A stretch of DNA of 35,233 nt from a virus (taxonomy: Duplodnaviria > Heunggongvirae > Uroviricota > Caudoviricetes), in IMG/VR virus record IMGVR_UViG_2529292998_000007, positions 1 through 35,233 of that record. The stretch is one strand, 5' to 3'. Position numbers and translations under genes: made by a program. The notes under the pieces were generated by a model that saw only the letters and a list, made by a program, of their open reading frames with translations, did not search any database and was not told where the DNA came from. Positions within the stretch are counted from its first letter, which is position 1; each line of letters opens with the position of its first letter. Shown here piece by piece: positions 1,447 to 34,915 of the stretch.

Positions 1447-1533
1447 GCTGAAAAACATAACCCATAAAATGCTAGCTGTACCAGGAACCACCTCCTTAGC
1501 CTGTGTAATCTCCCTTACACGGGCTTATTTTTT
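1447..1533 (+). ncRNA. cyaR: CyaR (RyeE) Hfq-dependent small RNA
   Basis: Sequence GCTGAAAAACATAACCCATAAAATGCTAGCTGTACCAGGAACCACCTCCTTAGCCTGTGTAATCTCCCTTACACGGGCTTATTTTTT matches the E. coli CyaR sRNA from memory, including the terminal hairpin and U-tract; located directly downstream of yegQ as in K-12. Confidence 0.85.
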
Positions 1534-1534
1534 A
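1507..1534. repeat. attL core: 28-bp direct repeat AATCTCCCTTACACGGGCTTATTTTTTA overlapping the 3' end of cyaR
   Basis: The identical 28-mer recurs at 34731-34758 downstream of the integrase gene; the two copies bracket a complete P2-like gene set. Confidence 0.85.
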
Positions 1535-1602
1535 CGCGTAATACGATGAAATAAAAGGATTTATTTCTGGTCACGTCCACACATTGACCACATCGACAAA
1601 AA

Positions 1603-1622
1603 AGCCCCTCGACTGAGGGGCT
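1603..1622 (-). terminator. Rho-independent terminator downstream of ogr (hairpin AGCCCCTC-GACT-GAGGGGCT, A-run on + strand giving a U-run on the - strand)
   Basis: Perfect 8-bp GC-rich stem with 4-nt loop; on the minus strand it is followed by TTTTTTGTCG just after the ogr stop. Confidence 0.6.
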
Positions 1623-1634
1623 TTCTGTTTGTAA

Positions 1635-1853
1635 TTACATCCACATAATTTGCTGCCCTGACGGCAACGGGTGCGGCCTTACGGCGTGGACTTCTCCCGG
1701 CTTCACGATGTATCGCTGTACCGACTCATAAGTGATGAACGTGGCGCTGCAATTCACGTTCTGGCACTGGTGATAACGCTCTTTTGTCGTGTCAGTGATA
1801 TAGCGACTTGTACGCGCATGTGCGGCATGCTGGCATAAAGGACAATGAAACAT
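1635..1853 (-). CDS. ogr: Ogr/Delta-family zinc-finger late transcription activator
   Basis: MFHCPLCQHAAHARTSRYITDTT...CQNVNCSATF is the P2 Ogr C-x2-C...C-x4-C zinc finger; 72 codons from the internal Met. The six-frame ORF extends further 5' to 1916 but P2 Ogr starts at MFHCPLC. Confidence 0.88.
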   Translation of the reverse strand: MFHCPLCQHAAHARTSRYITDTTKERYHQCQNVNCSATFITYESVQRYIVKPGEVHAVRPHPLPSGQQIMWM

Positions 1854-1934
1854 CGCGAGCACCTCTTCCGGTTTTGTTGATGGTGCCATTTTAGTTAATT
1901 TATCCTTATAAAACAAACAGATAAATAATAAACA

Positions 1935-3098
1935 TCACTCATCATCTTCTGTTTCGTACTCCACATCAGAAAGCCTGACCTCAAGCTCTAAGGACGTCGT
2001 GAAGCCGCTATTATTCAGAAAATGTGTCACCTTAGTGATTGTCCAGTCCTGCTCGTCTATGACGCGCTTAAAGCCTGACACTTTAACCGGTGTTTCCGTG
2101 TAAATATCTGCCCGACCGGTAGCCAGGCTGATGGAGAACTCCGCGACGCCCCGTTGCAGTTTGTCCCACTTTGCCTGAGCGGCGCGCATGGCCTGCGCTT
2201 TTGTGGCATATACCGTAGTCAGGGCAAAAACGTTGTCAGCTTCACCGGCCATGTATTCACCTTCGCGCGCTTCCGGTACTTTTGGCGCTTTCTTCTGCGT
2301 GACCGGTTTCGCTTTCGGGTGCTCCAGTGCGCGCAGGTGTTTTTCTTTCTTTTTGCGTTTCAGTTTTACCTTCTGCTTTTGCGGCTTCGGGTCTTTGGTG
2401 TGTAACCACTTTGCCGTTACGCCGGTGTAAGCTCCACGGTCAGCAATCGCAAAATGATGACGGTCGCCGTCGCTGCGGGTGATGGTAATCTGCGGGATTT
2501 TTTTACCGCTGGCCGTCACCCCCTGCCCTGCTTTGAGAAACAGCAGTTTTCCCATTTTTACCGACACCTCGCCGCCGTTGCGTTCAGCAAGACGGGTCAG
2601 GAATTTCACATCAGACTCCTGCGACTGGTCGATGTGCGGGATTTTAATTCCGGCCAGTGACGGAGCGACACTGGCTTCCAGCCTGTTACGGGAGGCTATC
2701 GCCTCAACAATCGCACCGAGCGTGGTGTCATGCCAGGAGCCTTCCCGGCGGGAATTGAGCGTCCCACGAAAATCTGCACTCCGGGCACGGATGGTGACCA
2801 CATCCGGTGCGCCCCGGTGTTCAACCTCATCAACGGTAAATTTCCCTTTGCATACCAGGGCAAAACCTTTCCAGCCGATATACACCGTCAGGACAGCGCC
2901 ACGACCCGGCAGCCCGACCTGCCCGTCGGCATCGTTCAGTTCAATATCAAGCTGGTCAGCCTCAAAGCCCCGGTTATCCGTCAGGGTCATGCTCATCAGA
3001 CGGTCGCTGATATTGCCGGTAATATCCCTGCTGTCGAGCATCAGCATGTAATCCGGCGTCAGCGTACTGCCTGCATCAAATGTCAGCGCATCCAGCAT
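1935..3098 (-). CDS. D: Tail protein D (late control/tail assembly)
   Basis: 387 aa, same length as P2 gpD; positioned between ogr and U as in P2. Confidence 0.85.
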   Translation of the reverse strand: MLDALTFDAGSTLTPDYMLMLDSRDITGNISDRLMSMTLTDNRGFEADQLDIELNDADGQVGLPGRGAVLTVYIGWKGFALVCKGKFTVDEVEHRGAPDVVTIRARSADFRGTLNSRREGSWHDTTLGAIVEAIASRNRLEASVAPSLAGIKIPHIDQSQESDVKFLTRLAERNGGEVSVKMGKLLFLKAGQGVTASGKKIPQITITRSDGDRHHFAIADRGAYTGVTAKWLHTKDPKPQKQKVKLKRKKKEKHLRALEHPKAKPVTQKKAPKVPEAREGEYMAGEADNVFALTTVYATKAQAMRAAQAKWDKLQRGVAEFSISLATGRADIYTETPVKVSGFKRVIDEQDWTITKVTHFLNNSGFTTSLELEVRLSDVEYETEDDE

Positions 3099-3577
3099 TA
3101 TCCCGCCCCCGTCATACCCGTGAATCTGGTCGCCATACTGCCAGCCTTACCGATGAGCGATTCCGCCTGTTTACCGATATCGCCATAAAGCGCGGCCAGT
3201 GATTCATCAACGCGGGTGAGCGACAGCGTAAAATCAATTTTCCGGGGTGTGCCGTCTGCAAAGAAAATACTCCCTGTTTCACTCACCCTGCTGATGACAT
3301 ACATGCCGTAAATCATGCCGGTGCCATCCAGCAACGGCCACGCCCGACCTTCCTCTGCCATCAGCCTGAGCGTGGTCATCGTCAGCTTTCCGCCTGTCAG
3401 TTCGGGATAAAGCACACCGGCAAGCGTAATGTTTTCCTCACCCACACCGAGAAACTGAAAGGCATCCCGTTTACCGATACGGGAATTTGACGGCCAGCGA
3501 TAATCTGATTCACGCTGCATGGCCTGGTGTGGCAGCGTCTGGCGCATAAAAACAAACATACCTAACGCGAGCATCAT
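3098..3577 (-). CDS. U: Tail protein U
   Basis: 159 aa; its start overlaps the D stop; position and size match P2 gpU. Confidence 0.85.
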   Translation of the reverse strand: MMLALGMFVFMRQTLPHQAMQRESDYRWPSNSRIGKRDAFQFLGVGEENITLAGVLYPELTGGKLTMTTLRLMAEEGRAWPLLDGTGMIYGMYVISRVSETGSIFFADGTPRKIDFTLSLTRVDESLAALYGDIGKQAESLIGKAGSMATRFTGMTGAG

Positions 3578-3591
3578 TTTTCGTCACCTCC

Positions 3592-6039
3592 TTAACCGTC
3601 ATGCATCATGCTGGCACGGGCGCGCGCACGTTTATCCCGCTCGTATTTTTCGAGCGCATCCTGTAACTGGCGGTCAAGCTGTGTTCCCGGCGCAGTACCG
3701 CCCGTCAGGTTGATGTGATATTCGTTTTTACTCTGGTCCACATAAGAGCGACCAGCCGGTGCCGTGACCGGCTGATAAGCCTGATAGCCTGCATAAGAGC
3801 TGGTCGCCGGAATATAACCACCGGTGCCATACGTGGCGGCATGAGTCCTTGCGGCGGTCTGGTCAAGTGTGTCTGACTCTTTGTTGATAACACCGAGTTT
3901 TTCCAGTACCCAGTCAATACCGCTGCGCAGTTTGTTGAACGCATTAAGCGGCAGCATCAGCGCGTCAGCCAGTGCCTGCCCGAACATGACGCCCGTGTCA
4001 CGGCAACGGTTCAGGGTGTCCTGGGTGGCTTTGACCGGGGCAATCAGGTTTTTAAACCACTGCCACGCGGCCTGTAACTTTTCGCCCAGCCAGTCAAACA
4101 CCGGTTTCAGTGGCGTGAACAGCTCCCCCACCGGCGCAAATGCCGCTTTCAGCCCTTCAACCACACCGCCAAAGAATGCGCTGACAGGCTCCCAGTATTT
4201 ACGGATAAGCAACGCCCCGGCGACAATGGCGGCCACCACAGCCACAACCGGCCAGCTAATCGCCCCGATGGCCGTCATAACGGCACTACCAACCGTCGTG
4301 AAGATTGCCCCCATTGCGCCTGCTGCCGCGATGATGGCATTGATGCCGGTGATAACCGGCCAGGCTACAAGACCAATTGCACCGATGATGCCAGTAAGCG
4401 CCAGCGCACCACCGGCAATGAGGCCAATGGTTGACGCCAGTGATTTGTTTTTCTGTATCCAGCCGTCGAGTTTTAACACATACTTTGTGGCCGTCTGCGT
4501 GAGCTTACGTAGCGCGCCTTCCTGCTGGTCAAACAGGTCAGTCCCCACCGCCTCATAAGCGGACTGAAACTCCTTAAAGTCACCGCCGAGGTTGTCCTGC
4601 ATGATATTTACCAGCTCTGCGGTCTTTCCGTCTGAGGCTTTAAACGCAGCGGTCAGTTTGTCCAGCTTTCCGGTTGAGGCGGCAGTCATCAGCACGGCGG
4701 CGGCTGAACTGGCCTCCTCCCCGAAAATGGTTTTCATGTATTCAGCCTGCTGGGCAGTACCGAGCCGGTTTTTCTCAAAACTGGCCTGCATTTCTTTCAG
4801 AATGGTAAATACTGGTCGGGTGTTTCCCTTACCGTCTGAGGTTTTCACACCAAGCTCTTTGAGTGCATCCCATGCTTTTCCCGTCGGTGCCTGCAGGCGG
4901 CTTAACACGGCACGGCTTCCCGTCCCCGCCATTGAACCGGTAATTTTTGCATCATGCAGCGCTCCGACCATTGCGGCGGTTTCTTCAATGCTGACACCGG
5001 CATTTTTTGCCACAGGTGCGGCATAGGTCAGCGCATCGCTCATGCCGTCAAAATCGGCGGCGGTTTTGTTCATCGTCATGGAGAGAACATCCCCGATATG
5101 AGCGACCTTATCGTTTGAAAGCTGAAAGGCGGATTTCATCCCCATCAGCAGGGCGGCGTTTTCTTCCATCGTGCGGCGGTTCGCCAGTGCCATATTCAGC
5201 GTGACCGGCGTTGCCGCCTGAATGGCATCAACATCCCCACCGGCTTTCGCAATGATAATCTGTGCACCGGCTGCATCATCCGCCGAGGCGGCAGTATTGT
5301 CACCGAGCTGGCGCGCCTGCTTGCGGAGCGCGGTCATTTCGGCGGAGTCTTTTGCCACACCGAGCACGGCCTGCAATTCTGAGTTTTTCTGCGCAAACTC
5401 ATAACCGGGCATCAGCAGCTTAACACCGGCCATCGTTCCCGCCGCCGCAATCCCCACACCGGCAGCGCCCACCGAGGCCATATTTCCTGCCAGTTCCTTT
5501 CCGGCCTGATAACGCTGTTTGACTGCGTTAAGTTTGGCCTGTTGCGCACTGACACGCGCCAGCGCGTCACGCTGACGGTTAAGTTGTGCGGTGGTTTCAC
5601 TGATACAGTTTTTCAGTCCCTGCTCATCATGTGCAAGATTGCGGGTATTAATTCCCACAGCGGCCAGTTCCCGCTGCTGGCGTTTAACGGAATCTGTCAG
5701 GCGGTTATATTTCGCCTGTAAGTCCTCCGCCGCACGCTTTGCGGATTCCAGCACTTTCGCCTGAGCACGGGTCGGACGTTCGGTGTTTTTAAACTGTGTG
5801 GCAAGGGCTTCGGCCTCCTGCCGTGCCTTTTCAAGTGCATGACCAGTTACGGCAAGCTGTGCGCTGGTCTTACGGAATCCCTCAATACGGGATGCCTGAC
5901 CGTTCAGCTCGCGCAGTGATTTTTGTGTTTCCCGGATATCCCCCGACAGCGACTTGCTCGCTGTGCGGATGGATTTAAACGGGCGGGATGCCTGGTCAAC
6001 AGCCCTGAGCAATACCTGTAATTTTACATTGTTACTCAT
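3592..6039 (-). CDS. T: Tail tape measure protein T
   Basis: 815 aa; N-terminal coiled-coil, Ala/Gly-rich hydrophobic central segments typical of tape measure proteins; same length as P2 gpT. Confidence 0.9.
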   Translation of the reverse strand: MSNNVKLQVLLRAVDQASRPFKSIRTASKSLSGDIRETQKSLRELNGQASRIEGFRKTSAQLAVTGHALEKARQEAEALATQFKNTERPTRAQAKVLESAKRAAEDLQAKYNRLTDSVKRQQRELAAVGINTRNLAHDEQGLKNCISETTAQLNRQRDALARVSAQQAKLNAVKQRYQAGKELAGNMASVGAAGVGIAAAGTMAGVKLLMPGYEFAQKNSELQAVLGVAKDSAEMTALRKQARQLGDNTAASADDAAGAQIIIAKAGGDVDAIQAATPVTLNMALANRRTMEENAALLMGMKSAFQLSNDKVAHIGDVLSMTMNKTAADFDGMSDALTYAAPVAKNAGVSIEETAAMVGALHDAKITGSMAGTGSRAVLSRLQAPTGKAWDALKELGVKTSDGKGNTRPVFTILKEMQASFEKNRLGTAQQAEYMKTIFGEEASSAAAVLMTAASTGKLDKLTAAFKASDGKTAELVNIMQDNLGGDFKEFQSAYEAVGTDLFDQQEGALRKLTQTATKYVLKLDGWIQKNKSLASTIGLIAGGALALTGIIGAIGLVAWPVITGINAIIAAAGAMGAIFTTVGSAVMTAIGAISWPVVAVVAAIVAGALLIRKYWEPVSAFFGGVVEGLKAAFAPVGELFTPLKPVFDWLGEKLQAAWQWFKNLIAPVKATQDTLNRCRDTGVMFGQALADALMLPLNAFNKLRSGIDWVLEKLGVINKESDTLDQTAARTHAATYGTGGYIPATSSYAGYQAYQPVTAPAGRSYVDQSKNEYHINLTGGTAPGTQLDRQLQDALEKYERDKRARARASMMHDG

Positions 6040-6459
6040 TCGTGTTTCCGCTTCGCCGGAGCGCCTTTTCGCGCCATGTGATGAGTTCGGTCAGGCTCAT
6101 GGGATACAGTTCTGATGGCGGCCAGTGAAATATCACTGCCACATCCGCCATCAGGTCATCGACCGACAGATTTTTCGGGAACGTTACTGCACCGAGTTCG
6201 GCGACAAAAAACCGACCACCTTACCGGCCAGCGCCACAAGGTCAGGCAGTTCCAGCGCGGCGACTTCCTGCTCGGTCAGCATCGGTGCCGTCATGCGCGG
6301 CAGCACCTTAATCAGTGCATCGACTTCTGAGTTTGCGACCGCAGCCAGACTGACACCGCGCAGCGTCCCCGCACTGGGTTTCATCAGCGTGACCTGTTCG
6401 ATAACCTGCTCACCACGCTTGACCGGACTGTCCAAGGTAATCACATTATCTTTGTTCAT
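6032..6459 (-). CDS. E': Tail assembly chaperone E+E' produced by -1 programmed ribosomal frameshift at TTTTTTG
   Basis: Slippery heptamer TTTTTTG (minus strand, + coordinates 6205-6211) near the 3' end of E; my manual translation of the -1 frame gives VAELGAVTFPKNLSVDDLMADVAVIFHWPPSELYPMSLTELITWREKALRRSGNTNE ending at 6032, overlapping the T start. Confidence 0.65.
6184..6459 (-). CDS. E: Tail assembly chaperone E
   Basis: 91 aa (MNKDNVITLDSPVKRGEQVIEQVTLMKPSAGTLRGVSLAAV...), located between FII and T; matches P2 gpE. Confidence 0.85.
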   Translation of the reverse strand: MNKDNVITLDSPVKRGEQVIEQVTLMKPSAGTLRGVSLAAVANSEVDALIKVLPRMTAPMLTEQEVAALELPDLVALAGKVVGFLSPNSVQ

Positions 6460-6515
6460 GGTTTTCTCACTTCTGAATCGGGGTTAACCGGTCAGCCAGG
6501 CTGACCGGATGAAAA

Positions 6516-7034
6516 TTACAGGCCGATATTGCGGCGGTGTTGCTCCAGCCGGTCGACGCCGTTCACCTTCTCAATCATGTTGATGGTGTCGATTTCGACC
6601 AGCTCCTTACCGTCCATCGTCAGCCGGAAATAGGTGCAGACCACGGAGATTTTCGACTCGGTGTCTTCTCCCTGTTTACCCTCGCCGGTGTCGATTTCTT
6701 TCTGACGTCCACGCATGACCACCTCGACGGCCACCGTTTCGCCGGTATCGTCGCGCTGGTAAGAGCCTGCAAAACGAATCGGCACGGCATCCACACCGGT
6801 TGCTGCGTAAAGCTCCCAGATAACCGAATCCGGGAAACCACCGAGCGACCACTCCATTGACAGCGCATCGTCATCAAGGCCGAGGTCTACCGGTGCGCTT
6901 CCGTTCATCCCCGCACCGCGATAGTTTTCGAGTTTACGGGTCAGTTTTGGCAGCGTGACGGACTTTGCAACGCCCTGATAGCTGTAGCCGTTCAGAAAGA
7001 CGTTCATTAACTTGAGTTTGCGCGGCATTGCCAT
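6516..7034 (-). CDS. FII: Major tail tube protein FII
   Basis: 172 aa; position and size match P2 gpFII. Confidence 0.88.
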   Translation of the reverse strand: MAMPRKLKLMNVFLNGYSYQGVAKSVTLPKLTRKLENYRGAGMNGSAPVDLGLDDDALSMEWSLGGFPDSVIWELYAATGVDAVPIRFAGSYQRDDTGETVAVEVVMRGRQKEIDTGEGKQGEDTESKISVVCTYFRLTMDGKELVEIDTINMIEKVNGVDRLEQHRRNIGL

Positions 7035-7046
7035 CGGTCAGGCTCC

Positions 7047-8237
7047 TTAATTGCTGTTAACCGAGGTGACCAGATTTGCCAGGTATTTATCGGTAATACG
7101 CTGGCGCAGGGTCAGGTTTTCGAGAGGAGGCACCGGTGTATAGTCGTAGTCGATATACAGTTTTCCGGCCTTGAGGGTTTCCGCATCGTTGGATTCTTCG
7201 CTGAACCAGCAGGTCGCATCCACGATATAGCCGTTTGTTTTCAGCTCACGGAATTTGGCATTGATGCCGTCAACGATGTCGCGAATCAGCGTTGCGGTGA
7301 TGGGCTTGTCCACCGCCCACATGTGCGCCTCAGCCATCGTGTCGGCCAGCACCTGCGCGGTGCGGGTGTAGTTTTCAAAGAGGAACAGCGGGTCATCAGA
7401 GCAGGTACGGTTACCCCAGAAGCGGAAACCGTCACGGCGAATCAGCGTTGTGACGCCTGACTCGTTAAGCAGGTCAGCATCGGTGCCGGACTCCTGCAAA
7501 TCCCAGAATACGGACGCGCTGATGCCGGTAACACCGTTCACCCCGACGTTGGACAGCGTTTTATGCCAGCCCTGCTCCTGGTCGATTTTAGCGCGCAGAC
7601 CCAGCGCACGGGCGGTGGCATACGCGGTGGCGGTGGTACTGGCGACCGTATCCCATGCGAGGAAATCCGGCCAGATGACCATCAGCTCACGCTGGCTGAA
7701 ATTCTGGCGGTAGGCTTTCACCTCGGAAATGGTCTTACAGCCCCATGCGCTGATATACCCGAAAGCGCGCAGCTTCTGACAGACTGATGCCAGTGCGACG
7801 GCAACCTCTTTGGTGTCCAGTCCCGGCACACCGAGAATACGCGGTTTAACACCGGTTACCGACTCCGCCGCCAGCAGGGCTTTCAGTCCGGTGTACTGAC
7901 CGTTTTCGTCGGTGGTGCCGATGATATTGGAAACGGTCTGCGCAAGTTTCGTTTCTTCGTCATCGCCGTTGCCGTCTTCCACGCGCACGACAACGGTGAC
8001 CGGTTTTGACTGGTCAGCGATGGCCTGCAACGACGCCGCCAGCGTGCCTTTTTTACCGGCCTTTGCAATTGCGCTCTGCACGTTGGTAATCAGCACCGGT
8101 TTATTGAGGGGGAAGGTTTCCGCATCCGCATCGCTGGCCGTGCAGACCATGCCGACAATGGCCGTGGATACGGTGGAAATGACGCGGGTGCCGTCGTTAA
8201 TCTCCAGCACCTGCACGCCGTGATGATAGTCACTCAT
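7047..8237 (-). CDS. FI: Contractile tail sheath protein FI
   Basis: 396 aa; position and size match P2 gpFI. Confidence 0.9.
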   Translation of the reverse strand: MSDYHHGVQVLEINDGTRVISTVSTAIVGMVCTASDADAETFPLNKPVLITNVQSAIAKAGKKGTLAASLQAIADQSKPVTVVVRVEDGNGDDEETKLAQTVSNIIGTTDENGQYTGLKALLAAESVTGVKPRILGVPGLDTKEVAVALASVCQKLRAFGYISAWGCKTISEVKAYRQNFSQRELMVIWPDFLAWDTVASTTATAYATARALGLRAKIDQEQGWHKTLSNVGVNGVTGISASVFWDLQESGTDADLLNESGVTTLIRRDGFRFWGNRTCSDDPLFLFENYTRTAQVLADTMAEAHMWAVDKPITATLIRDIVDGINAKFRELKTNGYIVDATCWFSEESNDAETLKAGKLYIDYDYTPVPPLENLTLRQRITDKYLANLVTSVNSN

Positions 8238-8632
8238 CCGTTTAACTCCGTGGTTAATGGGTGCAACTATTTTCTGTTGTGCAGAGCATGAGACGCTATT
8301 TGACCTGGCTGGTCAGTGGATGAAACAACAGATAAAGAAAAGGCGGGCAACTCGCCCGCCCGTCCTGATTTGTACTCACTCATTTTTCAACTGACAATTT
8401 ACCTAGCCCAAAAGCTATCAAATCAGACAGTCTGCTTTGAGCGAACAGCGGAAGTTCGGAATATATACTGACATAGACGTGTTTTCTTGCGGTGGCCAGT
8501 TTTTGTTGACCACTTCATTGTACCTAATCTTGGAGGTTGATCAGTTAACCCTCATTTTTGCGGGTTAACTGAAGTTAGGCTTACTGTGTATAGATAAAAC
8601 AAGCGTTTTTCCAAGTTACCTTAGAAAAAGCC

Positions 8633-9565
8633 TTAAGTTAGAAGCCGTTCCTCGTAATCGTCGGTTGTGGGCATTTTTCCGATCTCTGTCATGCGACACA
8701 CTAATCGGGATAAAAGCACTCGAACCTCAATTATATGCTCAACTAAAAAGTTATCTGACGTAGCTCCCCCATGCACTGCCTTCGAACGGTAGTCATACAG
8801 CTTCTTAACCCTACGATAGGTGGCTAAACGATCAGGTCCTCGCTCCTCAAGATATGCTGCGGCCATAAGAGCAAGACGAAAACGAAGCTCTGAATTGATT
8901 CCAAAGAGCGCTTCAAATCCTGCCCATAAAGCAGCAGCAGCCATTCTCAAATTCGCGTGTTGGTTGTGAGTTGTTAAAGAATCAATAGCGAGCCGGAATG
9001 CTGGTTGCTCTAGCAGATCTATCCAACGCTTGAGATTCTCTTGAACCCAGTCGAGAGACTCTACTGATATCTCTACACTTGGGCTTATTCTCCGAACTGC
9101 CGGCACGTCCTCAAGAAGTTGGACTTCACACGAGTTGGCTTGAAGAGCAGGGAATACATCCCAAGATGCACTTGCTACTGCAGGAACAAGTATATCGGTG
9201 AGTGTGCGGCATCGGATCGCGGATATGATCCACCATCCGATAGTCAGGTCTGATTGAGAAAATTTCGACTCACTGCTTTGCAACGCAAGCTCATGCGTAA
9301 CTGCGGGCATATGACGAGCAACAGCGCTGAGTAGCGACTTGCTCTTAAGCGCTGTGGCTAACTCTATCTCTCCTGGTGGATGAAGTACCTCCCTTAATTC
9401 ACCTACGTCTTGGAAAACATAAGGCCCGTTTCGAAACGTCAATCCTGACAAAGCGAAACAGATCTCATTCTGACTGGATAAACTAGATATTCGAGTTGCA
9501 GCGTATTTCTTGCGAGACTCGAAGTAGTTAAGTAAACCTGACAATTTTTCTTTGTTGATTTCCAT
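8633..9565 (-). CDS. Hypothetical 310-aa cargo protein at the P2 Z/fun position; no family assigned (contains one R-x4-H motif, RSKAVH, which is weak HEPN-like evidence only)
   Basis: Single long ORF flanked by non-coding DNA (8238-8632 and 9566-9718) between FI and G; composition differs from the neighbouring tail genes; no similarity to a P2 structural protein that I can recognise. Confidence 0.5.
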   Translation of the reverse strand: MEINKEKLSGLLNYFESRKKYAATRISSLSSQNEICFALSGLTFRNGPYVFQDVGELREVLHPPGEIELATALKSKSLLSAVARHMPAVTHELALQSSESKFSQSDLTIGWWIISAIRCRTLTDILVPAVASASWDVFPALQANSCEVQLLEDVPAVRRISPSVEISVESLDWVQENLKRWIDLLEQPAFRLAIDSLTTHNQHANLRMAAAALWAGFEALFGINSELRFRLALMAAAYLEERGPDRLATYRRVKKLYDYRSKAVHGGATSDNFLVEHIIEVRVLLSRLVCRMTEIGKMPTTDDYEERLLT

Positions 9566-9718
9566 ATTCCCAAGCTTAGAATTTTCGCTATTGTGTACCG
9601 TATATTACACAATAGCTTAGTTAGGGCGTAGGCGTCCGCTTTTGGTACAGAGCAGACTGTCAGATTAAGTTTTACTCTGTGCCATAGATACGTTAGCTCA
9701 CTCCAGATATCATACAAC

Positions 9719-10246: not shown

Positions 10247-10249
10247 AAC

Positions 10250-25123: not shown

Positions 25124-25127
25124 GTTG

Positions 25128-27065: not shown

Positions 27066-27552
27066 ATCTAAACTCCATTAACTTCGTTCTATCTTTTAAA
27101 CCATCTTTTCCAACCAAATGGAATTTAGATAGTGTGTCTATGATAAATGTATTAATAGTTTTATTCGTATTAATAAAATTATTAATAGAAAGTAATAAGC
27201 CATCTGGAACAGACTTATCTGTTCTCTTTATAATGTTTTTCTCAAGACAATCCATCTCAACCAACCCAGTAGCTGCAAGACATCTTATTGCTGCCATTTG
27301 AATTTCATACATATCTCTGAATGTAGATGTAACATTAATAGGATCCCGATATATATTAGAATACTTCTTCGCTTCTTTCTTCATTGAAGAATAATTATGA
27401 GGCATTCTAATTTCAGATACCAAAGCAGGAAATAGCAGATAGAAGTCCAAAATCCTAGCCTTATCTACCTCAATTTCATTTACATGGTCTATAAGAGCAA
27501 TCATTCTGAATAAACAATGATATGCATCATATGCTGGATGGTAAATTAGCAT
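27052..27552 (-). CDS. Hypothetical 166-aa protein, third gene of the cargo cassette
   Basis: ORF overlapping both neighbours (by 7 bp upstream, 14 bp downstream), suggesting translational coupling; AT-rich; no recognisable motif. Confidence 0.55.
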   Translation of the reverse strand: MLIYHPAYDAYHCLFRMIALIDHVNEIEVDKARILDFYLLFPALVSEIRMPHNYSSMKKEAKKYSNIYRDPINVTSTFRDMYEIQMAAIRCLAATGLVEMDCLEKNIIKRTDKSVPDGLLLSINNFINTNKTINTFIIDTLSKFHLVGKDGLKDRTKLMEFRYDYS

Positions 27553-28109
27553 TTATCCCACCTTATATGGCAATTGCCACCCAGAAAAAATAGTAATCCC
27601 AAGAGATCTTTTGCTGTTAGCTCTAGCAAGTTCTCTCCCAAAGACGAATATAATTCATCAATTATTGAAGCGATTTTCTCATCAACAATCACTCTGGAGC
27701 TATCCGCTTCTATAAGTGGTGTTACTTTCGTTATAAAATCAAAATGAATTTGATCTAAAATTATTACAAATATTCTTTGTGCAGTTTTTGACGTCTGGCG
27801 ACGCATTATGGCTTTTGTCGCTTTTTCCTTCATCTGCTTAGCTAAAAACAACAAATCTTTTCTATTACTCTCGAGTAATTTAGCGTCTAACCCCCGAACA
27901 TCAATATCAGGCTGAAGGGACATATAATGCTCTAGTTCAGCACAAAACCCCGGAACCGCTTCCCCTATATCACCTCTCTTCAAACACTCATAAAGTTTCT
28001 GTATCTCCCTGTTAGTTCCTTTAACAGGATAATTGAATATATGATTAGTCTGATCACCAGAAATTATGTTGCCATTTGTTACGGTATTTCCTGACTGTTC
28101 GATAGACAC
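27546..28109 (-). CDS. Hypothetical 187-aa protein, second gene of the cargo cassette (Gly/Asn/Thr-rich N-terminus)
   Basis: ORF in the same operon-like arrangement; its N-terminus QSGNTVTNGNIISGDQTNH resembles the C-terminus of the upstream 63-aa ORF. Confidence 0.55.
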   Translation of the reverse strand: MSIEQSGNTVTNGNIISGDQTNHIFNYPVKGTNREIQKLYECLKRGDIGEAVPGFCAELEHYMSLQPDIDVRGLDAKLLESNRKDLLFLAKQMKEKATKAIMRRQTSKTAQRIFVIILDQIHFDFITKVTPLIEADSSRVIVDEKIASIIDELYSSLGENLLELTAKDLLGLLFFLGGNCHIRWDKC

Positions 28110-28120
28110 ACCAACACCTC

Positions 28121-28312
28121 TTAATGTGACCTATCCTGATTACCGCCAACAATACTTCCATTTGTAACACTGTTACCAGTTTGAGTAACTGTATGATTGT
28201 TTGAGTTCACGCTGGAATTACCAATTTGCTTTCTAGATGAAAACACGACACGAATCGACCAACCAGCTCCCAGTCCGACAAAGAAAGTGATGATATGTGT
28301 AATCCACTCCAT
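28121..28312 (-). CDS. Hypothetical 63-aa small membrane protein, first gene of the cargo cassette
   Basis: N-terminal hydrophobic helix (WITHIITFFVGLGAGWSIRVVF) followed by an Asn/Ser/Thr/Gly-rich tail; 12 bp upstream of the next ORF; could alternatively be a remnant of a duplicated 5' end. Confidence 0.4.
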   Translation of the reverse strand: MEWITHIITFFVGLGAGWSIRVVFSSRKQIGNSSVNSNNHTVTQTGNSVTNGSIVGGNQDRSH

Positions 28313-28814
28313 TCTTGTATCCTTAGCATAAATTTTTGTACTCTTATAATAAATCGAATACTTTCTATCTACAACTAAGGAACATCAACTAGTTATGTAA
28401 TGCAAATCACATACTCTCGATGTAACCACTGACAGACAAAACACAGATACTGCCGTTATAATTGCCAACGTTACTATTTAAACAATAATTCGTAGGATTC
28501 TATTGCTTTGCTTAGTGGTATATGACCACTGACAGCACGAATGATATACCCAATCCTAATTACAACGAATTAAACTAAGGCTCGCATATAACTCTATCAT
28601 TCTCTATTTCTCAGCAACCTCAAAAACTGTATAAAAACACAGTACCACATAACCACCAAAACAGGGAAGCAAAAAATTAAAGCCCTATTAACTGAATACT
28701 CTTGGTAACACTAATCGGTTTTACGATCTAAAAAATACAAAAACCGAGAATTGATTCAACACTTTGTTTTTTATATAAAAAGATACATTTTAGTACATTT
28801 AATACACTATTTGA

Positions 28815-31079
28815 TTAAAAACCAAACTGCTTATCAACAAGCTGATATGTGAATTTTTTTTCGCCATATACCAATGTCGCTCCACGCGCCAGCGCCTCAA
28901 GTTCCCATCGCTGCGGCCTGATACCGTTCTGAGCAAGGTCAACGCGGATACGGGTGATTTGCATTCGTTCTGACCGGGTCAGTCTGGCCGATGGCGCTAT
29001 TTCATGTGGTTTTAACGGTTTTCCGTTTCTTTGCTGACGGTTTGGTCTTCTCAGGCCGTGTTTTAATGCGCTTCTGAGCGCCCTCACGACCTCCGGGTCA
29101 TTCCATTCGATAACACCGTCATCAACCAGATTAAGCACTGCTGCGGCGTGTTCAGAAGGTGTGGGAGCCGGTAACGAAGCATCACTGCTGGCAGGCTTTC
29201 CACAGTTATTGACAGGACTCCGAGGCGCGGCGATGCCGCTTTTTAAAGTCAAAGGCTCAACGACCGGCACTTTCGGAACAATGCGCCAGTCCGTCGTTCT
29301 GGTGATATGAATATGACGCGCGCCGAGATGCGGCGCGTAAATGCCGACCACTCTCTCGACTTCTTCCTCGTACTCGTTAACTTCATCCGACGGACTACGG
29401 GCAACCCTGACAGTCTGACAATCGCGCGGGACATTTGCCCCGCCCTGCGCGCTGATATACAGCGCAAAATCACCACTGTCTGCGGCGGCGCGTGCAGCCT
29501 CCACGCGTTCGTCAAATTCATCAGCAATGCTGACGCCGCGAGGCAATTTACGTAGCTCACGGTAAGCTCCCATTGTCGGCAGGCCAACCGTTTTAAATTG
29601 CGGGATGCGCCACGTTGACGCCCATGCGGTAACAGCCGCCGCAGTATCTTTCAGCGGTCTGCCGGTATCGTTATCGAGCTGACCGTCCAGTGCATAGCCG
29701 TCGATATTTTTTGAAATGTATTTCGCGATATATCCCGCAGCACCGCCCCGGTTAAGGTGTTTTGCCTGAAAACGGTTTCGCGCGGCTCCTCTTTCGTCGC
29801 CATCCTCTTTGAGCGCATAGCGACGCATGATTTCGATAATCTGGTTACGCTGGCGTTGATTACAAAAAAGCATCATATGCCAGTGCGGCGTTCCGTCGTG
29901 GTGTGGCTCGACGACTCGCAAACCGTAGACCTGTAAATCATTATCCTTGAATGCCGTGCGCATCAGGCTCCAGATACGGCAGAGATAACGCTGCGCATCC
30001 TTTGGATTAAATGCCTCATCGTTCCAGCCGTGATTAAGCTGGACGGTTTTACTTTCGCCTTTTCCGACCTGACGTGTCGGGTGATACTTTGACGGCGCGG
30101 TCAGCGTGATAAACATGCCCACATCGCCCTCTGCGGCGGCGTAACGCTCAATACCGGCAATGGTGTTCATCAGCTCCATCCGGCGAATTTCAGGATTAGA
30201 AATACTGCCCATCACCTTACTGATAAGGTCGATGCGCTCGCCGGTTTCCCTGTTTTCAAGGTCACACGATTTAAGAAATTCCAGATTTGCCTGGCGGCGT
30301 GCACGCACATCACGAATGGCATGTTTACTGGCATAAGGAGAACGGTCTTTATTCACCTCCCCGACAGCAATCAGTAACGCCTCATGCCAGCGCATACGCT
30401 GGCCTTTGAGCTGATGAGTCCACCACTCATCGTTAAACAGACGGGCAATTGCAGAATATGCCTGCCTCGTGGTCATCTGTCCTTTACGATATTTTTTCCA
30501 GTAAAGCGGGGAAATATTGAAAGCACGTGCAGCGCCAGCAACATGACCATACAGATGCGCCTGCGCCTCATCCGTAAACAGCGATTCTTTTTCGCCATGC
30601 GCATCCACCCAGGCATCGCAGAGTTCCTCATACATCATGAAAAGCTGCGATGAGATACGGGCGGCAAACTTTTTCAGCTCCTTGTCATTCATTCCCGGCA
30701 GGCGCGCATACTGGTCGCGCTCTGCCAGAAACAGCAACGACGCGTCGGTGTTCATTTCATGGCGCTGATTCACGCGCTCAATGCGCGGCCATAAACGACG
30801 CTGAAAAGTGGATGTGAGGAAATAAAACCCGTGCACCGGGCTTTTATTGCGCCGGATGTAGTCATAGCGTGAAGTAAACAGCGAGCGCAAAAAGTAAGGC
30901 AGGCGGTTAATCGTGGATAAAACACCTTGCACCTGACGCATCTCGTCACGTGTAAGGGGTCTTTCGCGCCCGACGGCCTCGCGTGGCGCGTTCCATGCAT
31001 AAGCACCGGTAAACGCCTTACCAGTGCCTGCAGCAAATGCTGACGGAGGGACAAAACGCCCGGAGGCTTTAACGGCCAT
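28815..31079 (-). CDS. A: Replication initiation protein A (rolling-circle nicking enzyme)
   Basis: Conserved P2 gpA motifs (HHDGTPHWHMMLF, GAAGYIAKYISKNIDGY with the catalytic Tyr region); start placed at MAVKASGRF, with the six-frame ORF extending 14 codons upstream to 31121. Confidence 0.9.
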   Translation of the reverse strand: MAVKASGRFVPPSAFAAGTGKAFTGAYAWNAPREAVGRERPLTRDEMRQVQGVLSTINRLPYFLRSLFTSRYDYIRRNKSPVHGFYFLTSTFQRRLWPRIERVNQRHEMNTDASLLFLAERDQYARLPGMNDKELKKFAARISSQLFMMYEELCDAWVDAHGEKESLFTDEAQAHLYGHVAGAARAFNISPLYWKKYRKGQMTTRQAYSAIARLFNDEWWTHQLKGQRMRWHEALLIAVGEVNKDRSPYASKHAIRDVRARRQANLEFLKSCDLENRETGERIDLISKVMGSISNPEIRRMELMNTIAGIERYAAAEGDVGMFITLTAPSKYHPTRQVGKGESKTVQLNHGWNDEAFNPKDAQRYLCRIWSLMRTAFKDNDLQVYGLRVVEPHHDGTPHWHMMLFCNQRQRNQIIEIMRRYALKEDGDERGAARNRFQAKHLNRGGAAGYIAKYISKNIDGYALDGQLDNDTGRPLKDTAAAVTAWASTWRIPQFKTVGLPTMGAYRELRKLPRGVSIADEFDERVEAARAAADSGDFALYISAQGGANVPRDCQTVRVARSPSDEVNEYEEEVERVVGIYAPHLGARHIHITRTTDWRIVPKVPVVEPLTLKSGIAAPRSPVNNCGKPASSDASLPAPTPSEHAAAVLNLVDDGVIEWNDPEVVRALRSALKHGLRRPNRQQRNGKPLKPHEIAPSARLTRSERMQITRIRVDLAQNGIRPQRWELEALARGATLVYGEKKFTYQLVDKQFGF

Positions 31080-31344
31080 ATGAGCCAAAAGCCTCTGAAC
31101 AACGCTTGCTGAGTTGCTCAACCTGCGCGTTTAAATCAGCAAAAGACTTTGCGCTTCCGGTCAGAATATCGTGATGCATCAGGCCGGAAACGAGCTGGCT
31201 TAATTTCGGGTAATAACCAACCACCGCCAGCCATTCCTGACCGGCGTTTTTACCGCTTTCCGCTCTCTTTTTCTCGTGGAGAATAAACTGAAAGCTGTCA
31301 CTGGTAACGACATAACGTTCGCCAATTTCAATACGAATACTCAT
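31069..31344 (-). CDS. Hypothetical early protein (P2 orf83-like position)
   Basis: 91-aa ORF in the early operon immediately upstream of A. Confidence 0.55.
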   Translation of the reverse strand: MSIRIEIGERYVVTSDSFQFILHEKKRAESGKNAGQEWLAVVGYYPKLSQLVSGLMHHDILTGSAKSFADLNAQVEQLSKRCSEAFGSYGR

Positions 31345-31565
31345 GCCATTCTCCGGTAATGCTTGTTTTTTGCTTCAAAGACTGACTGGCAGGAAACACT
31401 ACGCGTGGCTGACGGATAAGCCGCACGACGGGCAGCAGGTATTGGCGCGTCACACTCTTCGCAAACCAGCGCAGAAACACCGCAATGCTTTACCCTTGCC
31501 GCGTTAATCTGGCGCTCCAGTAATTCAGCCTGTTGTTCCTGAATAAAATCTACGTTGTCCGGCAT
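31341..31565 (-). CDS. TraR/DksA-family C4 zinc-finger protein (P2 orf82-like)
   Basis: 74 aa with C-x2-C ... C-x2-C spacing (HCGVSALVCEECDAPIPAARR...SCQSV) typical of phage TraR/DksA-like zinc fingers. Confidence 0.65.
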   Translation of the reverse strand: MPDNVDFIQEQQAELLERQINAARVKHCGVSALVCEECDAPIPAARRAAYPSATRSVSCQSVFEAKNKHYRRMA

Positions 31566-31870
31566 TACCAGCTCCTTTTGTCGTTAAGTTTTTTAAATTC
31601 ATCAGCGCAATAGCTGGCAATTTCTGTCGTTAATTTTGTCAGTTCATCCACTGAGGAAATTTGCTTGTGGAATACAGCGCGTTTAACAAGTAAATTGACC
31701 ACATCAGACAGGAGATTTAATTCGTTCTGATAAATCGCGATAACAGACTCAGTTATTTCGCGTTTTTCTTTATCAAGACCAAGTTGAATAAGAGATAAAT
31801 CGCCATTTTTCATAACGGCGATTTTTAAGGCGTTATTCAGTAATACAACTGAACGAGAACAGGACATCAA
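31565..31870 (-). CDS. Hypothetical early protein (P2 orf81-like position)
   Basis: 101-aa ORF whose stop overlaps the next start; early operon context. Confidence 0.55.
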
Positions 31871-32091
31871 AGCACCTCCCCGTGAGACAATCCAATATTG
31901 TGAAATTTTTCCGACTCCTGACTGAGCAGCTCGACTATCTCCACGCGGGATAACTCCGCCTTTGTGATGTGGCGAATCATGGCGTCAAGATGAGAAGAAA
32001 AGCGCGTCGCTGCGTCGGCCTGTGCTTCGGTTCTGGCCTGTTGCAGCAGTAATGCGTATTTACCGCACTGATTTTCAGAAACTGTATGCAT
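31867..32091 (-). CDS. Hypothetical early protein (P2 orf80-like position)
   Basis: ORF in the early operon; start placed at the internal Met MHTVSENQ to avoid a long overlap; the six-frame ORF extends to 32124. Confidence 0.5.
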
Positions 32092-32154
32092 GACTTTCTC
32101 CAGGCAAAAAGAAGCCCCGCACAATTAAGTGCGTTAAAAACTCTGGTTAATTAC

Positions 32155-32661
32155 TTAATGCAGATATTGCTCTGGTTTTACCGACGTCAGAATTGTCGGT
32201 GCATACTCAAACAGGCTGAATAATTCACGTAATGCACGGAATAAAGCATCACGCCAGTAACATGATTCTTCATTAATTCGCCAGTATGGCTGGTTAAATT
32301 CTTTTTCAGTCAATCCGGCATGCATAAATAAAGTACGACGCTGACTGACTGTTAAAAAACTAATATATGCATACTCACTTGCGCCAACCTGACGGCGTTT
32401 TGAGAATGCCCCACGCAATTCATCAATTGCGCAAACCAGCCGTTCACGTTCGACGTCGTTCATTTCTTCAAAACGCATCGTTGCGTGACGTTGTTTTAAC
32501 TGCGCATGAAAGCAAACTGTTAGCCGTTCGCGCTCCATCATCTGATTATAATAATCACATGTATCCTGCCAGCGAGGAACGGCAAGATGCTTACCAATTA
32601 TCCGACGCATGGTTGCTGGCTGTTTTTCAACGAGATTGAGCGTCATCACTGTCATTTCCAT
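32155..32661 (-). CDS. B: Replication protein B (helicase-loader-like)
   Basis: 168 aa; position downstream of cox and size consistent with P2 gpB. Confidence 0.75.
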   Translation of the reverse strand: MEMTVMTLNLVEKQPATMRRIIGKHLAVPRWQDTCDYYNQMMERERLTVCFHAQLKQRHATMRFEEMNDVERERLVCAIDELRGAFSKRRQVGASEYAYISFLTVSQRRTLFMHAGLTEKEFNQPYWRINEESCYWRDALFRALRELFSLFEYAPTILTSVKPEQYLH

Positions 32662-32822
32662 ACCCTCCGGCTTTTCAGAAAGGTCAGGGCCTTTTTTAAC
32701 GGACTCTGTTTTTTGGTGCGGATAATGATTCCCTTACGCCCCTTACCGTGGGTGATGGTGAAGTCAATCGCCCTAGGGCTTTCGTTACGCAGTAACTGAG
32801 CAATACAACGAGGCTCATTCAT
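32652..32822 (-). CDS. Small basic hypothetical protein (P2 orf78-like position)
   Basis: Lys/Arg-rich ORF between cox and B; start placed at MNEPRCIAQ so that it does not overlap cox. Confidence 0.45.
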   Translation of the reverse strand: MNEPRCIAQLLRNESPRAIDFTITHGKGRKGIIIRTKKQSPLKKALTFLKSRRVWK

Positions 32823-32832
32823 ACGGTTCTCC

Positions 32833-33108
32833 TTAACGTGGTTCACCGAGACCTAACCACATCAACCAGCCGTCACGAATCTCTTTAGGGCGGCTTTCAT
32901 AAGCCAGTTTTAGTCCGTTATTCCATGCCGGAAGGTATACCCAATATTCACCTGCACGACCTGAAGCTGATTGTGGATCGGTCATATCAATTACAGGCAG
33001 CTTTCCTTTATCGATCATCCGACGAACCGCTCCTGTCGATTTTCCTATTAGTTTTGCGAACTCCTGATAAGGAATCGCATCAGTCATGAGTGTTACTTGC
33101 TTGCTCAT
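32833..33108 (-). CDS. cox: Cox: excisionase and transcriptional repressor of the lysogenic promoter
   Basis: 91 aa, the P2 Cox length; first gene of the early operon, divergent from C. Confidence 0.85.
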   Translation of the reverse strand: MSKQVTLMTDAIPYQEFAKLIGKSTGAVRRMIDKGKLPVIDMTDPQSASGRAGEYWVYLPAWNNGLKLAYESRPKEIRDGWLMWLGLGEPR

Positions 33109-33180
33109 GTCGTCCTCCAGCCCTCATGAATTGCGTTTAATGCCTTATAATGCCTTTTAGTGCCCACATCCAAGCACTAA

Positions 33181-33222
33181 ACAATCTACATCTAAACCAA
33201 ATACTATTGAGATCTAAACACC
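33181..33222. promoter_or_regulatory. Immunity switch region: two direct repeats ATCTAAAC (33190-33197 and 33212-33219) flanking a -10-like hexamer on the minus strand; candidate C-repressor operators at the early promoter
   Basis: 8-bp direct repeats spaced 22 bp apart in the cox-C intergenic region; P2-type repressors bind direct repeats flanking the -10 of the early promoter. Confidence 0.5.
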
Positions 33223-33522
33223 ATGTCAAACACGATAAGCGAGAAGATAGTCTTAATGCGAAAATCAGAGTATTTGAGCAGACAACAACTTGCTGATTTA
33301 ACAGGGGTTCCGTATGGCACGCTGAGTTACTATGAAAGTGGTCGTTCAACACCTCCAACAGATGTCATGATGAACATCCTGCAGACCCCACAATTCACCA
33401 AATACACTTTATGGTTCATGACCAATCAGATCGCTCCTGAGTCCGGGCAAATTGCGCCCGCTCTCGCACACTTTGGGCAAAACGAAACAACGTCGCCCCA
33501 CTCCGGTCAAAAGACTGGTTAA
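33223..33522 (+). CDS. C: Immunity repressor C
   Basis: 99 aa, the P2 C length; helix-turn-helix-like segment (LSRQQLADLTGVPYGTLSYYESGR); divergent from cox and upstream of int. Confidence 0.88.
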   Translation: MSNTISEKIVLMRKSEYLSRQQLADLTGVPYGTLSYYESGRSTPPTDVMMNILQTPQFTKYTLWFMTNQIAPESGQIAPALAHFGQNETTSPHSGQKTG

Positions 33523-33637
33523 CAATTCATCGTGAATATATTCATTACAAGTGCCTACTATTGGTGGCTAAATTTCAGCCACCACGAAAAAAGCGATTAG
33601 TAGTCGCAAAAAAACACACCACTCGGAGGGTTTTCTG

Positions 33638-34651
33638 ATGGCAATCAAAAAACTCGATGATGGTCGATATGAAGTGGACATCCGCCCTACTGGACGTAAT
33701 GGAAAACGCATCCGTAGGAAGTTTGATAAGAAAAGCGAAGCTGTCGCTTTCGAGAAATACACGTTGTACAACCACCACAATAAAGAATGGCTATCAAAAC
33801 CAACAGACAAACGACGTCTGTCGGAACTGACACAGATCTGGTGGGATTTAAAGGGTAAACACGAAGAGCATGGGAAATCTAATCTTGGAAAAATTGAAAT
33901 CTTCACAAAAATAACGAATGACCCATGCGCATTTCAAATCACGAAATCCCTTATCAGCCAGTACTGCGCCACCCGAAGAAGTCAGGGTATTAAACCTTCG
34001 AGTATCAATCGTGATTTAACATGTATTAGCGGCATGTTTACAGCCCTGATTGAAGCGGAGTTATTCTTTGGTGAGCACCCTATCAGAGGGACAAAGAGGC
34101 TTAAGGAGGAAAAACCAGAAACAGGCTATCTCACACAGGAAGAAATTGCCTTACTGCTTGCAGCACTTGACGGCGACAATAAAAAGATTGCGATTCTTTG
34201 CCTGAGTACAGGAGCACGTTGGGGAGAAGCAGCTCGTTTGAAAGCAGAAAATATCATCCATAACCGCGTCACGTTTGTTAAAACGAAAACAAACAAACCA
34301 CGCACCGTCCCGATCTCAGAGGCTGTTGCCAAAATGATCGCGGATAACAAACGAGGTTTTTTATTCCCTGATGCTGATTACCCTCGCTTCAGACGAACAA
34401 TGAAAGCAATAAAACCGGATTTGCCAATGGGGCAAGCCACACATGCACTAAGGCACAGCTTTGCCACTCATTTCATGATTAATGGAGGAAGTATTATCAC
34501 GCTACAACGGATACTAGGTCACACGCGGATTGAGCAAACGATGGTTTACGCTCATTTTGCGCCAGAGTACCTTCAGGACGCCATTTCTCTTAATCCGCTA
34601 AGAGGTGGTACTGAGGCCGAGAGTGTCCACACAGTGTCCACAGTAGAGTAA
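33638..34651 (+). CDS. int: Tyrosine site-specific integrase (P2 Int family)
   Basis: 337 aa, the P2 Int length; C-terminal catalytic signature HALRHSFATH...LGHTRIEQTMVYAHF with the conserved R, H-x-x-R and Tyr; adjacent to attR. Confidence 0.9.
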   Translation: MAIKKLDDGRYEVDIRPTGRNGKRIRRKFDKKSEAVAFEKYTLYNHHNKEWLSKPTDKRRLSELTQIWWDLKGKHEEHGKSNLGKIEIFTKITNDPCAFQITKSLISQYCATRRSQGIKPSSINRDLTCISGMFTALIEAELFFGEHPIRGTKRLKEEKPETGYLTQEEIALLLAALDGDNKKIAILCLSTGARWGEAARLKAENIIHNRVTFVKTKTNKPRTVPISEAVAKMIADNKRGFLFPDADYPRFRRTMKAIKPDLPMGQATHALRHSFATHFMINGGSIITLQRILGHTRIEQTMVYAHFAPEYLQDAISLNPLRGGTEAESVHTVSTVE

Positions 34652-34730
34652 CGTTTAAGGGCTTTCAGTGGTAATTTATGCCGCTCAAACCCGCATTGTA
34701 CCGTTGAAAGCCCCTACTGGTGACACCCTG

Positions 34731-34758
34731 AATCTCCCTTACACGGGCTTATTTTTTA
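34731..34758. repeat. attR core: second copy of the 28-bp direct repeat AATCTCCCTTACACGGGCTTATTTTTTA
   Basis: Identical to 1507-1534; lies 80 bp downstream of the int stop. Confidence 0.85.
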
Positions 34759-34915
34759 TGCATAAGCCCTATCCCTGGTCACCGTCTTCCATTGACCACA
34801 TCGATAGAATCTCCCTTCATAGCACGATGCCTTTCACGTAACGGCATCGTGCTCGCACAGGTTCCGGCTAAGCACAACCAGAACGCGCATGTTTGACGCT
34901 TACCAAAAAATATTC

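Follow-up and report, generated by a model that had tools for sequence, protein, structure and literature searches.

How can a phage enter the gene of a small RNA (sRNA) and leave the RNA unharmed, and why does the bacterial DNA beside the insertion resemble the end of the phage? Both questions arise at the cyaR (ryeE) locus of IMG/VR virus record IMGVR_UViG_2529292998_000007, a stretch of 35,233 nucleotides (hereafter, the window) in which a prophage lies between cyaR and yegR. An initial annotation had described an intact P2-like prophage in the 3′ end of cyaR, bounded by a 28-bp direct repeat, accompanied by a second, imperfect repeat, and carrying three cargo loci. We conclude that the element is very probably phage P2 itself, residing at P2's classical preferred site in the cyaR terminator.

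Identity of the element

Bacteriophage P2 (AF063097 / NC_001895) was the top megablast match for the DNA between the two copies of the core repeat. The match comprised three collinear blocks: window 1507-8456 with P2 24382-17429 (96.5% DNA identity), window 9634-24994 with P2 15358-1 (97.9%), and window 28830-34758 with P2 30283-24355 (97.4%). The phage unit is 33,224 bp long, compared with 33,593 bp for P2, and the gene order is the same. Thirty-eight of the 42 P2 proteins are present at full length, with 94-100% amino acid identity and without a frameshift or stop; the only ones missing are fun(Z), orf91, tin, and old, all four of which are non-essential cargo. The integrase (Int), the C repressor, Cox, and Ogr are each 100% identical to P2 in amino acid sequence. 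The cohesive end (cos), the core of the phage attachment site (attP), the Int arms, the Cox region, and the bacterial attachment site (locI) are also those of P2. With 38 full-length P2 proteins in three blocks of 96.5-97.9% identity, the description of a P2-type prophage, apparently intact, in the cyaR 3′ end was borne out.

The differences from P2 lie in the cargo and in one attachment-site element. A gene for a 310-amino-acid HEPN-like protein stands in place of fun(Z), a four-gene ABC-3C/Lamassu-like cassette replaces old, tin, and orf91, and six positions differ in the region of the site for integration host factor (IHF).

Core repeat and preservation of CyaR

The window contains two perfect copies of the 28-mer AATCTCCCTTACACGGGCTTATTTTTTA, at 1507-1534 and 34731-34758, and no others; five of the seven bases past it also match between the copies. 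By our own arithmetic, an exact 28-mer pair would be expected by chance in 35 kb about 1e-8 times. The 28-mer corresponds to the annotated 27-nt attP core of P2 plus one base. Copy 1, at the ogr-side junction (1507-1534), maps to the P2 attP core (24356-24382) and consists of the loop, the 3′ stem half, and the U-tract of the CyaR terminator. Copy 2, at the int-side junction (34731-34758), is an exact 28-mer at which terminator prediction called no terminator; it forms none because the upstream stem half is missing there. When the left flank (through 1534) was joined to the right flank (from 34759), the resulting 576 nt were 100% identical to the uninterrupted yegQ-cyaR-yegR loci of several E. 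coli, which represent empty sites. The proposed 28-bp boundary is thus an exact pair whose flanks rebuild an uninterrupted bacterial attachment site (attB). The labels of the two junctions had to be reversed, as they had been set by position in the window: in P2 nomenclature the int side is attL, so copy 1, first called attL, is attR, and copy 2, first called attR, is attL.

The cyaR gene itself (1447-1533, plus strand) is intact, with its terminator hairpin, and all 87 of its 87 positions are identical to K-12 cyaR, as are the 150 nt upstream. The Rfam family CyaR_RyeE (RF00112) matched 1445-1530 along its entire model (1-85/85) and scored 100.7 bits, the gathering threshold being 47. It was the sole Rfam family detected across the whole window, and a tRNA scan of the window found no tRNA. 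The predicted terminator comprises a stem-loop at 1498-1525 followed by a T-run, and the repeat therefore spans the loop, the 3′ stem half, and the U-tract. Because the identity covers all three of these parts, the cyaR-side junction reads like the original, uninterrupted gene, and CyaR should therefore be unchanged. The regeneration of the sRNA 3′ end that had been proposed is exact, as judged from the identity to K-12 and the full Rfam score. The locus offers a clean worked example of a phage landing on an sRNA terminator without harming the RNA.

Other temperate phages integrate into the 3′ ends of small RNA genes, including 186 in tRNA-Ile, Fels-2 and SopE-phi in ssrA, and P2-type phages at rybB (PMC3448106, PMC3032704, PMC3603311). 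As in those cases, the phage carries the 3′ end of the RNA gene, so the gene is restored on integration. Unlike the tRNA and tmRNA integrators, the present element targets the terminator of an Hfq-type sRNA, and the identity is short (27-28 nt).

Attachment-site elements and the proposed recombination

We took the attP features from the annotation of P2 record AF063097, in which the core occupies 24356-24382, the Int P arm 24293-24320, the IHF site 24324-24357, the Cox sites 24399-24472, and the Int P′ arm 24470-24496. On the ogr side of the prophage, the Int P-arm binding site was located at 1569-1596 (minus strand), with two arm-type repeats and 0/28 mismatches to P2 24293-24320. An arm-site scan placed these repeats on the minus strand, TGTGGACG at 1574-1581 and TGTGGTCA at 1585-1592, and both fit the published P2-type arm consensus, tgTGGaCa (PMC3448106). 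The ogr/F-operon terminator follows at 1601-1624; it was detected by the terminator scan and showed 0/24 mismatches to the P2 feature. On the int side, the P′-arm sites (34617-34643, minus strand) contain two perfect copies of TGTGGACA, at 34624-34631 and 34635-34642, with 0/27 mismatches to P2, and the Cox binding region of attP (34641-34714) is identical to P2 24399-24472 (0/74 mismatches). The alignment with P2 attP that the initial annotation had named as a check thus gave no mismatch in the core, the P arm, the Cox region, or the P′ arm.

From established P2 biology and the sequence, P2 Int, a tyrosine recombinase, together with host IHF would pair the 27-nt core of attP with its identical counterpart at the 3′ end of cyaR, and strand exchange would take place inside those 27 nt. 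Excision would depend on Int, IHF, and Cox, which would act at the arm sites and Cox boxes. The cis and trans parts required for it are identical to those of P2, save for six differences in the IHF region. P2 is described as a non-inducible phage in the title of Bertani & Bertani 1970, cited in PMC5009727, and the prophage, like P2, should not be inducible by DNA damage. Mitomycin C, which had been suggested for obtaining excision products, is unsuited as an excision test because P2 is non-inducible and the C repressor here is identical to that of P2.

Occupancy of the cyaR site

The use of this site by P2 is already known, from its publication, from P2's own attP core, and from its presence in about 15% of complete E. 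coli genomes. For Wphi2 (P2) in E. coli W, Archer et al. 2011 named "cyaR RNA" as the site of insertion, and they gave the same site for ogr-D′ in K-12 and P2*B in E. coli B (PMC3032704). Bobay et al. 2013 treated ryeE as an already known phage target, citing Wassarman 2001 (PMC3603311), and Nilsson & Haggard-Ljungquist 2011 placed the P2 integration site at MG1655 position 2165238 (PMC3448106). The insertion site and the phage type are the same for Wphi2, P2*B, and hundreds of other E. coli prophages, while the hotspot cargo of P2-type prophages at cyaR differs from strain to strain. We take MG1655 position 2165238 to be this cyaR locus, given the coordinate shift between MG1655 sequence versions.

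Among 5426 complete E. coli genomes, the locus was contiguous or nearly so in 4563, and the junction of int, core, and yegR flank was found at ≥80% coverage in 812 (15%). About every seventh sequenced E. coli therefore has the same junction, and the insertion as first described adds nothing new. What is modestly new is the correspondence of the second repeat to the Int P-arm site, the reading of the yegR interval as a probable older P2-type scar, and the two unrecorded hotspot cassettes.

In K-12, the locus holds ogrK and yegZ (D′, a fragment of gene D), annotated as "cryptic prophage PR-X" with its start inside cyaR. PR-X is identical to the left prophage end of the window at 610 of 627 positions; it ends in a truncated second core, after which the same bacterial flank follows. 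It thus has the same cyaR junction, P arm, and bacterial flank as the window, but only ~0.63 kb has been kept, the endpoints of a deletion lying midway through gene D and midway through the second core. This agrees with the initial view that K-12 holds only ogrK/yegZ remnants at the locus and that the window presents the intact counterpart.

The locus has also decayed in another way, complementary to the ogr-D′ remnant of K-12: E. coli O145:H28 strain RM12761 retains, next to the core toward yegR, a truncated pseudogene of a P2-type integrase.

Integrity of the prophage

Taken at sequence level, the prophage is apparently complete. It could alternatively be a defective or "grounded" P2 that merely looks intact and is unable to excise or to form particles. 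Two features of the element weigh in that direction: the region matching the P2 IHF site (1532-1565, corresponding to P2 24324-24357) shows 6/34 mismatches to the reference phage, and the last ~7 residues of gpA are altered, the hotspot breakpoint falling inside the 3′ end of gene A. Decayed P2 copies also occur at this locus, as PR-X in K-12 and the truncated int of RM12761 illustrate. Against these points stand the 38 full-length core proteins and the identity to P2 of cos, the Int arms, the Cox region, and the core. Furthermore, PR-X carries a near-identical variant of the IHF region, with a single base difference from 1532-1565; this says nothing on whether the variant works, because PR-X is itself decayed. 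On balance, we regard a grounded P2 as unlikely.

A P2-type arm in the bacterial flank

The initial annotation had also noted an imperfect repeat of about 30 nt at 1567-1596 and 34775-34804, and suggested that the host side of attB already carried a phage-end remnant. The two copies match at 24 of 30 positions without gaps, or at 28 of 31 with two 1-nt gaps, and their spacing differs by 16 nt from that of the core pair. A chance resemblance might be entertained for so short a segment (30 nt). This explanation is refuted by the local alignment score of 38, against 15.6 ± 2.1 for dinucleotide shuffles, none of which reached it (0/1000). The two copies also agree in orientation and lie at almost equal distances from the core, and longer versions in other strains extend the match, so that the probability left to chance is negligible.

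By its position and identity, the phage-side copy is P2's annotated Int P-arm binding site. The bacterial copy is a decayed homologue of a P2-type P arm, carried in the flank at 34759-34818 with the arm-like segment at 34775-34804. It keeps one arm-type site, TGTGGTCA (34793-34800, minus strand), and has lost the second arm repeat together with 16 nt of the IHF-site region. This copy lies outside the prophage; empty sites have it too, and in K-12 it follows beyond the PR-X remnant. It was kept in all 11 E. coli flanks that we aligned (the window and ten others), and the flank itself was detected in 5424 of the 5426 genomes. The suggestion of a phage-end remnant on the host side of attB therefore stands, and the remnant is a species-wide feature of E. 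coli rather than a peculiarity of this strain.

The second repeat adjoins the junction, which is where a scar would be expected if it had formed recently, either during this integration or through imprecise excision in this strain. Empty sites nevertheless have the identical flank, with a 100% match in several genomes; the flank was detected in 5424 of the 5426 genomes and also lies beyond the remnant in K-12. Moreover, the two copies differ at 6 of 30 positions and by a 16-nt gap. The empty sites, K-12, and the aligned E. coli flanks refute a recent origin, which we consider highly improbable.

In two strains, MLI106K1 and EFF60, the stretch from the T-run of the core to the arm-like sequence is 12 nt longer. 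The added bases match the phage arm as well (GGATTGAT versus GGATTTAT), and this version looks like a less-deleted scar. A search of the phage collection with the flank 34759-34915 matched only two records, both of which include host flank; therefore, no extant phage arm in that collection is the donor.

Could the bacterial arm-like sequence instead be kept as a working part of the attachment site, either as a preferred attB or through an effect on excision? The P2 attB of E. coli might then be the surviving ogr-side junction of an ancient element, and the site at 34793-34800 might still bind Int, making the int-side junction attP-like. The arm-type repeat TGTGGTCA is exact, the surrounding 26-nt block is invariant in 11 diverse E. 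coli flanks, and the int-side junction of the lysogen resembles a complete attP with a shortened spacer. However, this block is no more invariant than others in the flank, the bacterial copy has lost its second arm repeat and its IHF site, and published descriptions limit attB to the core (PMC3448106). We hold a retained function, and likewise the combined reading in which an attB of such origin still binds Int, to be quite doubtful. If true, a retained arm site could add to P2's preference for the locus or to the stability of the lysogen. A working site would be compatible with a fossil origin of the sequence, and the two are not mutually exclusive.

Two further sequences in the flank were considered and set aside. 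The 10-mer AATCTCCCTT at 34807-34816 might be taken for a third partial core; we treated it as a chance match because five of the 11 aligned flanks read AATCCTCCTT and one reads TCCCCCTT. A host hairpin with an 11-bp stem and no T-run (AGCACGATGCC...GGCATCGTGCT, 34821-34853) occupies the position that the ogr terminator has in the phage arm. It lies ~60 nt downstream of the yegR stop and is largely kept in the 11 E. coli flanks, with scattered substitutions. It was rejected as a diverged ogr terminator, having no sequence similarity to it and no T-run, and not being called as a terminator.

Origin of the cyaR-yegS interval

A cyaR pattern scan across Enterobacterales yielded at least 120 species loci. 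Among the 120 loci listed, yegS follows cyaR on the same strand, no more than 3 kb downstream, in 95, and in 57 of those 95 the gap is within ~200 nt, including Escherichia sp. E1V33. The E. coli gap is ~890 nt. Its extra DNA is made up of the arm-like sequence, the hairpin, the oppositely oriented yegR, and ~300 nt rich in AT. This insert of ~0.8 kb has 38% GC, compared with 50-54% in the flanking genes, as measured for the K-12 island. In K-12 it spans 3322-4127 of the locus sequence (L002), and window 34759-35233 represents its left part. Among the matches listed, the insert is missing in Escherichia sp. E1V33 and in most Enterobacteriaceae. At the far end of the K-12 insert, a 59-nt alignment with the int-side sequence and core of P2 runs up to a T-run, and homology to the E1V33 flank begins again at precisely that point.

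These observations suggest that the whole E. coli cyaR-yegS insert is quite probably what remains of an older P2-like element. It would have entered the core used by P2 today, and its two worn ends would now bracket yegR. The cyaR-side core would have been preserved because it is the CyaR terminator, leaving the other core free to decay. Such an old scar, if true, would explain yegR as a lineage-restricted, AT-rich orphan, and the cyaR-yegS interval would look like layered P2-type debris, with the yegR scar first, then K-12 PR-X, and then the P2 of the window.

Several points speak against this origin. The right-end similarity is only moderately significant, with a score of 31 against 17.8 ± 2.4 and 2 of 1000 shuffles reaching it in K-12, and it is weaker in a second E. 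coli, ECMA0423 (33/1000). There is no recognisable phage gene inside the insert. Compared with the phage records, YegR matched only two, which include host flank, and YegR was accordingly rejected as recognisable phage cargo. Two distant YegR homologues (47-51% identity) sit in unrelated contexts. Finally, a single non-coli Escherichia outgroup, E1V33, was compared and stands behind the reading of the insert as an old scar.

YegR homologues are found almost only in E. coli and Shigella. One of the distant homologues, in an Enterobacter, is flanked by insertion sequence (IS) elements, which suggests that yegR may be a small mobile orphan gene. Some E. coli (e.g., BEN2908) have 170 bp of extra sequence near the 3′ end of yegR; this segment bears no relation to the att region.

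In favour of the old scar, P-arm sequence beside cyaR was also found in Citrobacter youngae (together with fragments of ogr, D′, P, and Q), a Citrobacter sp., an Enterobacter sp., a Buttiauxella metagenome-assembled genome, and one unclassified bacterium. Several of these non-coli loci showed no P2 protein match in the available downstream DNA (≤3 kb). At some P-arm loci in other Enterobacteriaceae, the arm is followed by islands of 2-3 kb that are not phage, and other species have enlarged cyaR-yegS gaps of 650-2000 nt. Second core copies were sought in the 8-kb loci of the other species with a P arm beside cyaR, and none was convincing. From these comparisons, insertions seem to have struck the 3′ flank of cyaR repeatedly throughout Enterobacteriaceae, which would make it a hotspot.

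Cargo loci

The initial annotation had counted three cargo loci. This count was upheld: the genes at the Z/fun and old/tin positions have been swapped for others, and orf30 has been kept. P2-like phage defence hotspots have been described by Rousset et al. 2022 (PMC9122126) and in a 2026 NAR survey (PMC13586616). In the window, too, the variable cargo sits precisely between gpA and gpQ, beside cos, and additionally at the Z/fun position among the tail genes.

The Z/fun hotspot (8457-9633, minus strand) shows no similarity to P2, and one open reading frame (ORF) of 310 amino acids (8633-9565) replaces fun(Z). This ORF belongs to phrog_28161 and has 221 homologues, in Enterobacter, Pseudomonas, Burkholderia, and others, some of which are named HEPN domain protein by NCBI/UniRef. 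The residues R260-x4-H265, an Rx4-6H motif, are invariant in a 19-sequence alignment that extends down to 41% identity. The protein matched no Pfam family even at E ≤ 10 and gave no PADLOC or NCBIfam match, and its DNA was not found in 50,697 phage records. We regard it as HEPN-like and as a candidate single-gene abortive-infection RNase.

In the cos-proximal hotspot (24995-28829, minus strand), which likewise shows no similarity to P2, old, tin, and orf91 are replaced by the ABC-3C/Lamassu-like cassette. Its genes encode an LmuB-like ATPase (25128-27065; PADLOC LmuB 4.5e-47, Pfam AAA_23), an MC5 protein (27052-27552; Pfam MC5 1.1e-52), a CTD9 protein (27546-28109; Pfam CTD9 2.4e-29), and a putative 63-amino-acid membrane protein (28121-28312) with one predicted membrane helix. 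An SMC-like ABC ATPase, a middle component, and a protein with an ABC-3C C-terminal domain constitute the ABC-3C/Lamassu make-up, and all three are present. The cassette is rare, occurring in 19-34 of the 5426 E. coli genomes, and was found in none of the deposited phage records; the combination of both cassettes was not found in the phage records either. Both swapped cassettes are probably anti-phage. They are candidates for anti-phage function that are absent from deposited phage genomes.

Within the cos-proximal hotspot, the 63-amino-acid ORF and the N-terminus of the CTD9 protein (27546-28109) share the motif GN(S/T)VTNG(S/N)I(V/I)xG(N/D)Q. The adjoining ~500 nt (28313-28815) are AT-rich, with ORFs all below 50 amino acids.

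The third cargo gene, orf30 (14769-15554, plus strand; phrog_2407), is non-essential cargo retained from P2, with 98.5% amino acid identity to P2 Orf30.

Gene content of the prophage and its flanks

The remaining genes of the prophage follow the P2 map, and identities below are to P2 at the amino acid level. Behind the cyaR-side junction lie ogr, the late transcription activator with an Ogr_Delta zinc finger (1635-1853, minus strand; 100%), and the tail genes D, U, T, E(+E′), FII, and FI (1935-8237, minus strand; full length, 97.8-100%). Beyond the Z/fun hotspot, the tail fibre and baseplate genes G, H, I, J, W, and V occupy 9719-14685 (minus strand; full length, 98.1-100%). Following orf30, the tail completion, lysis, and capsid genes S, R, lysC/B/A, K, Y, X, L, M, N, and O extend over 15626-21826 (minus strand; full length, 94.3-100%). 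P, the large terminase, and Q, the portal, lie on the plus strand at 22000-24806 (100% and 99.1%), followed by the 19-nt cohesive end of cos (24976-24994; GGCGAGGCGGGGAAAGCAC), which is identical to P2 cosL/cosR. On the other side of the cos-proximal hotspot are the early genes A, orf83-80, B, orf78, and cox (28815-33108, minus strand; 95.9-100%, with Cox at 100%). The gene for the C immunity repressor (33223-33522, plus strand; 100%) and int (33638-34651, plus strand; 100%), encoding the tyrosine integrase with Int_N and Phage_integrase domains, complete the element.

Two host genes frame the locus. Upstream of cyaR, yegQ/trhP (1-1362, plus strand) encodes Peptidase_U32 domains and is so annotated in matching E. 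coli genomes. At the other end, the small gene annotated as yegR (34916-35233, minus strand) lies inside the AT-rich insert between cyaR and yegS.

The tail-fibre gene H contains a 76-nt direct repeat, at 11534-11609 and 11666-11741, whose copies are 83% identical and 132 nt apart. The repeat is apparently also present in P2, because one copy matches the position of the other copy in P2 H.

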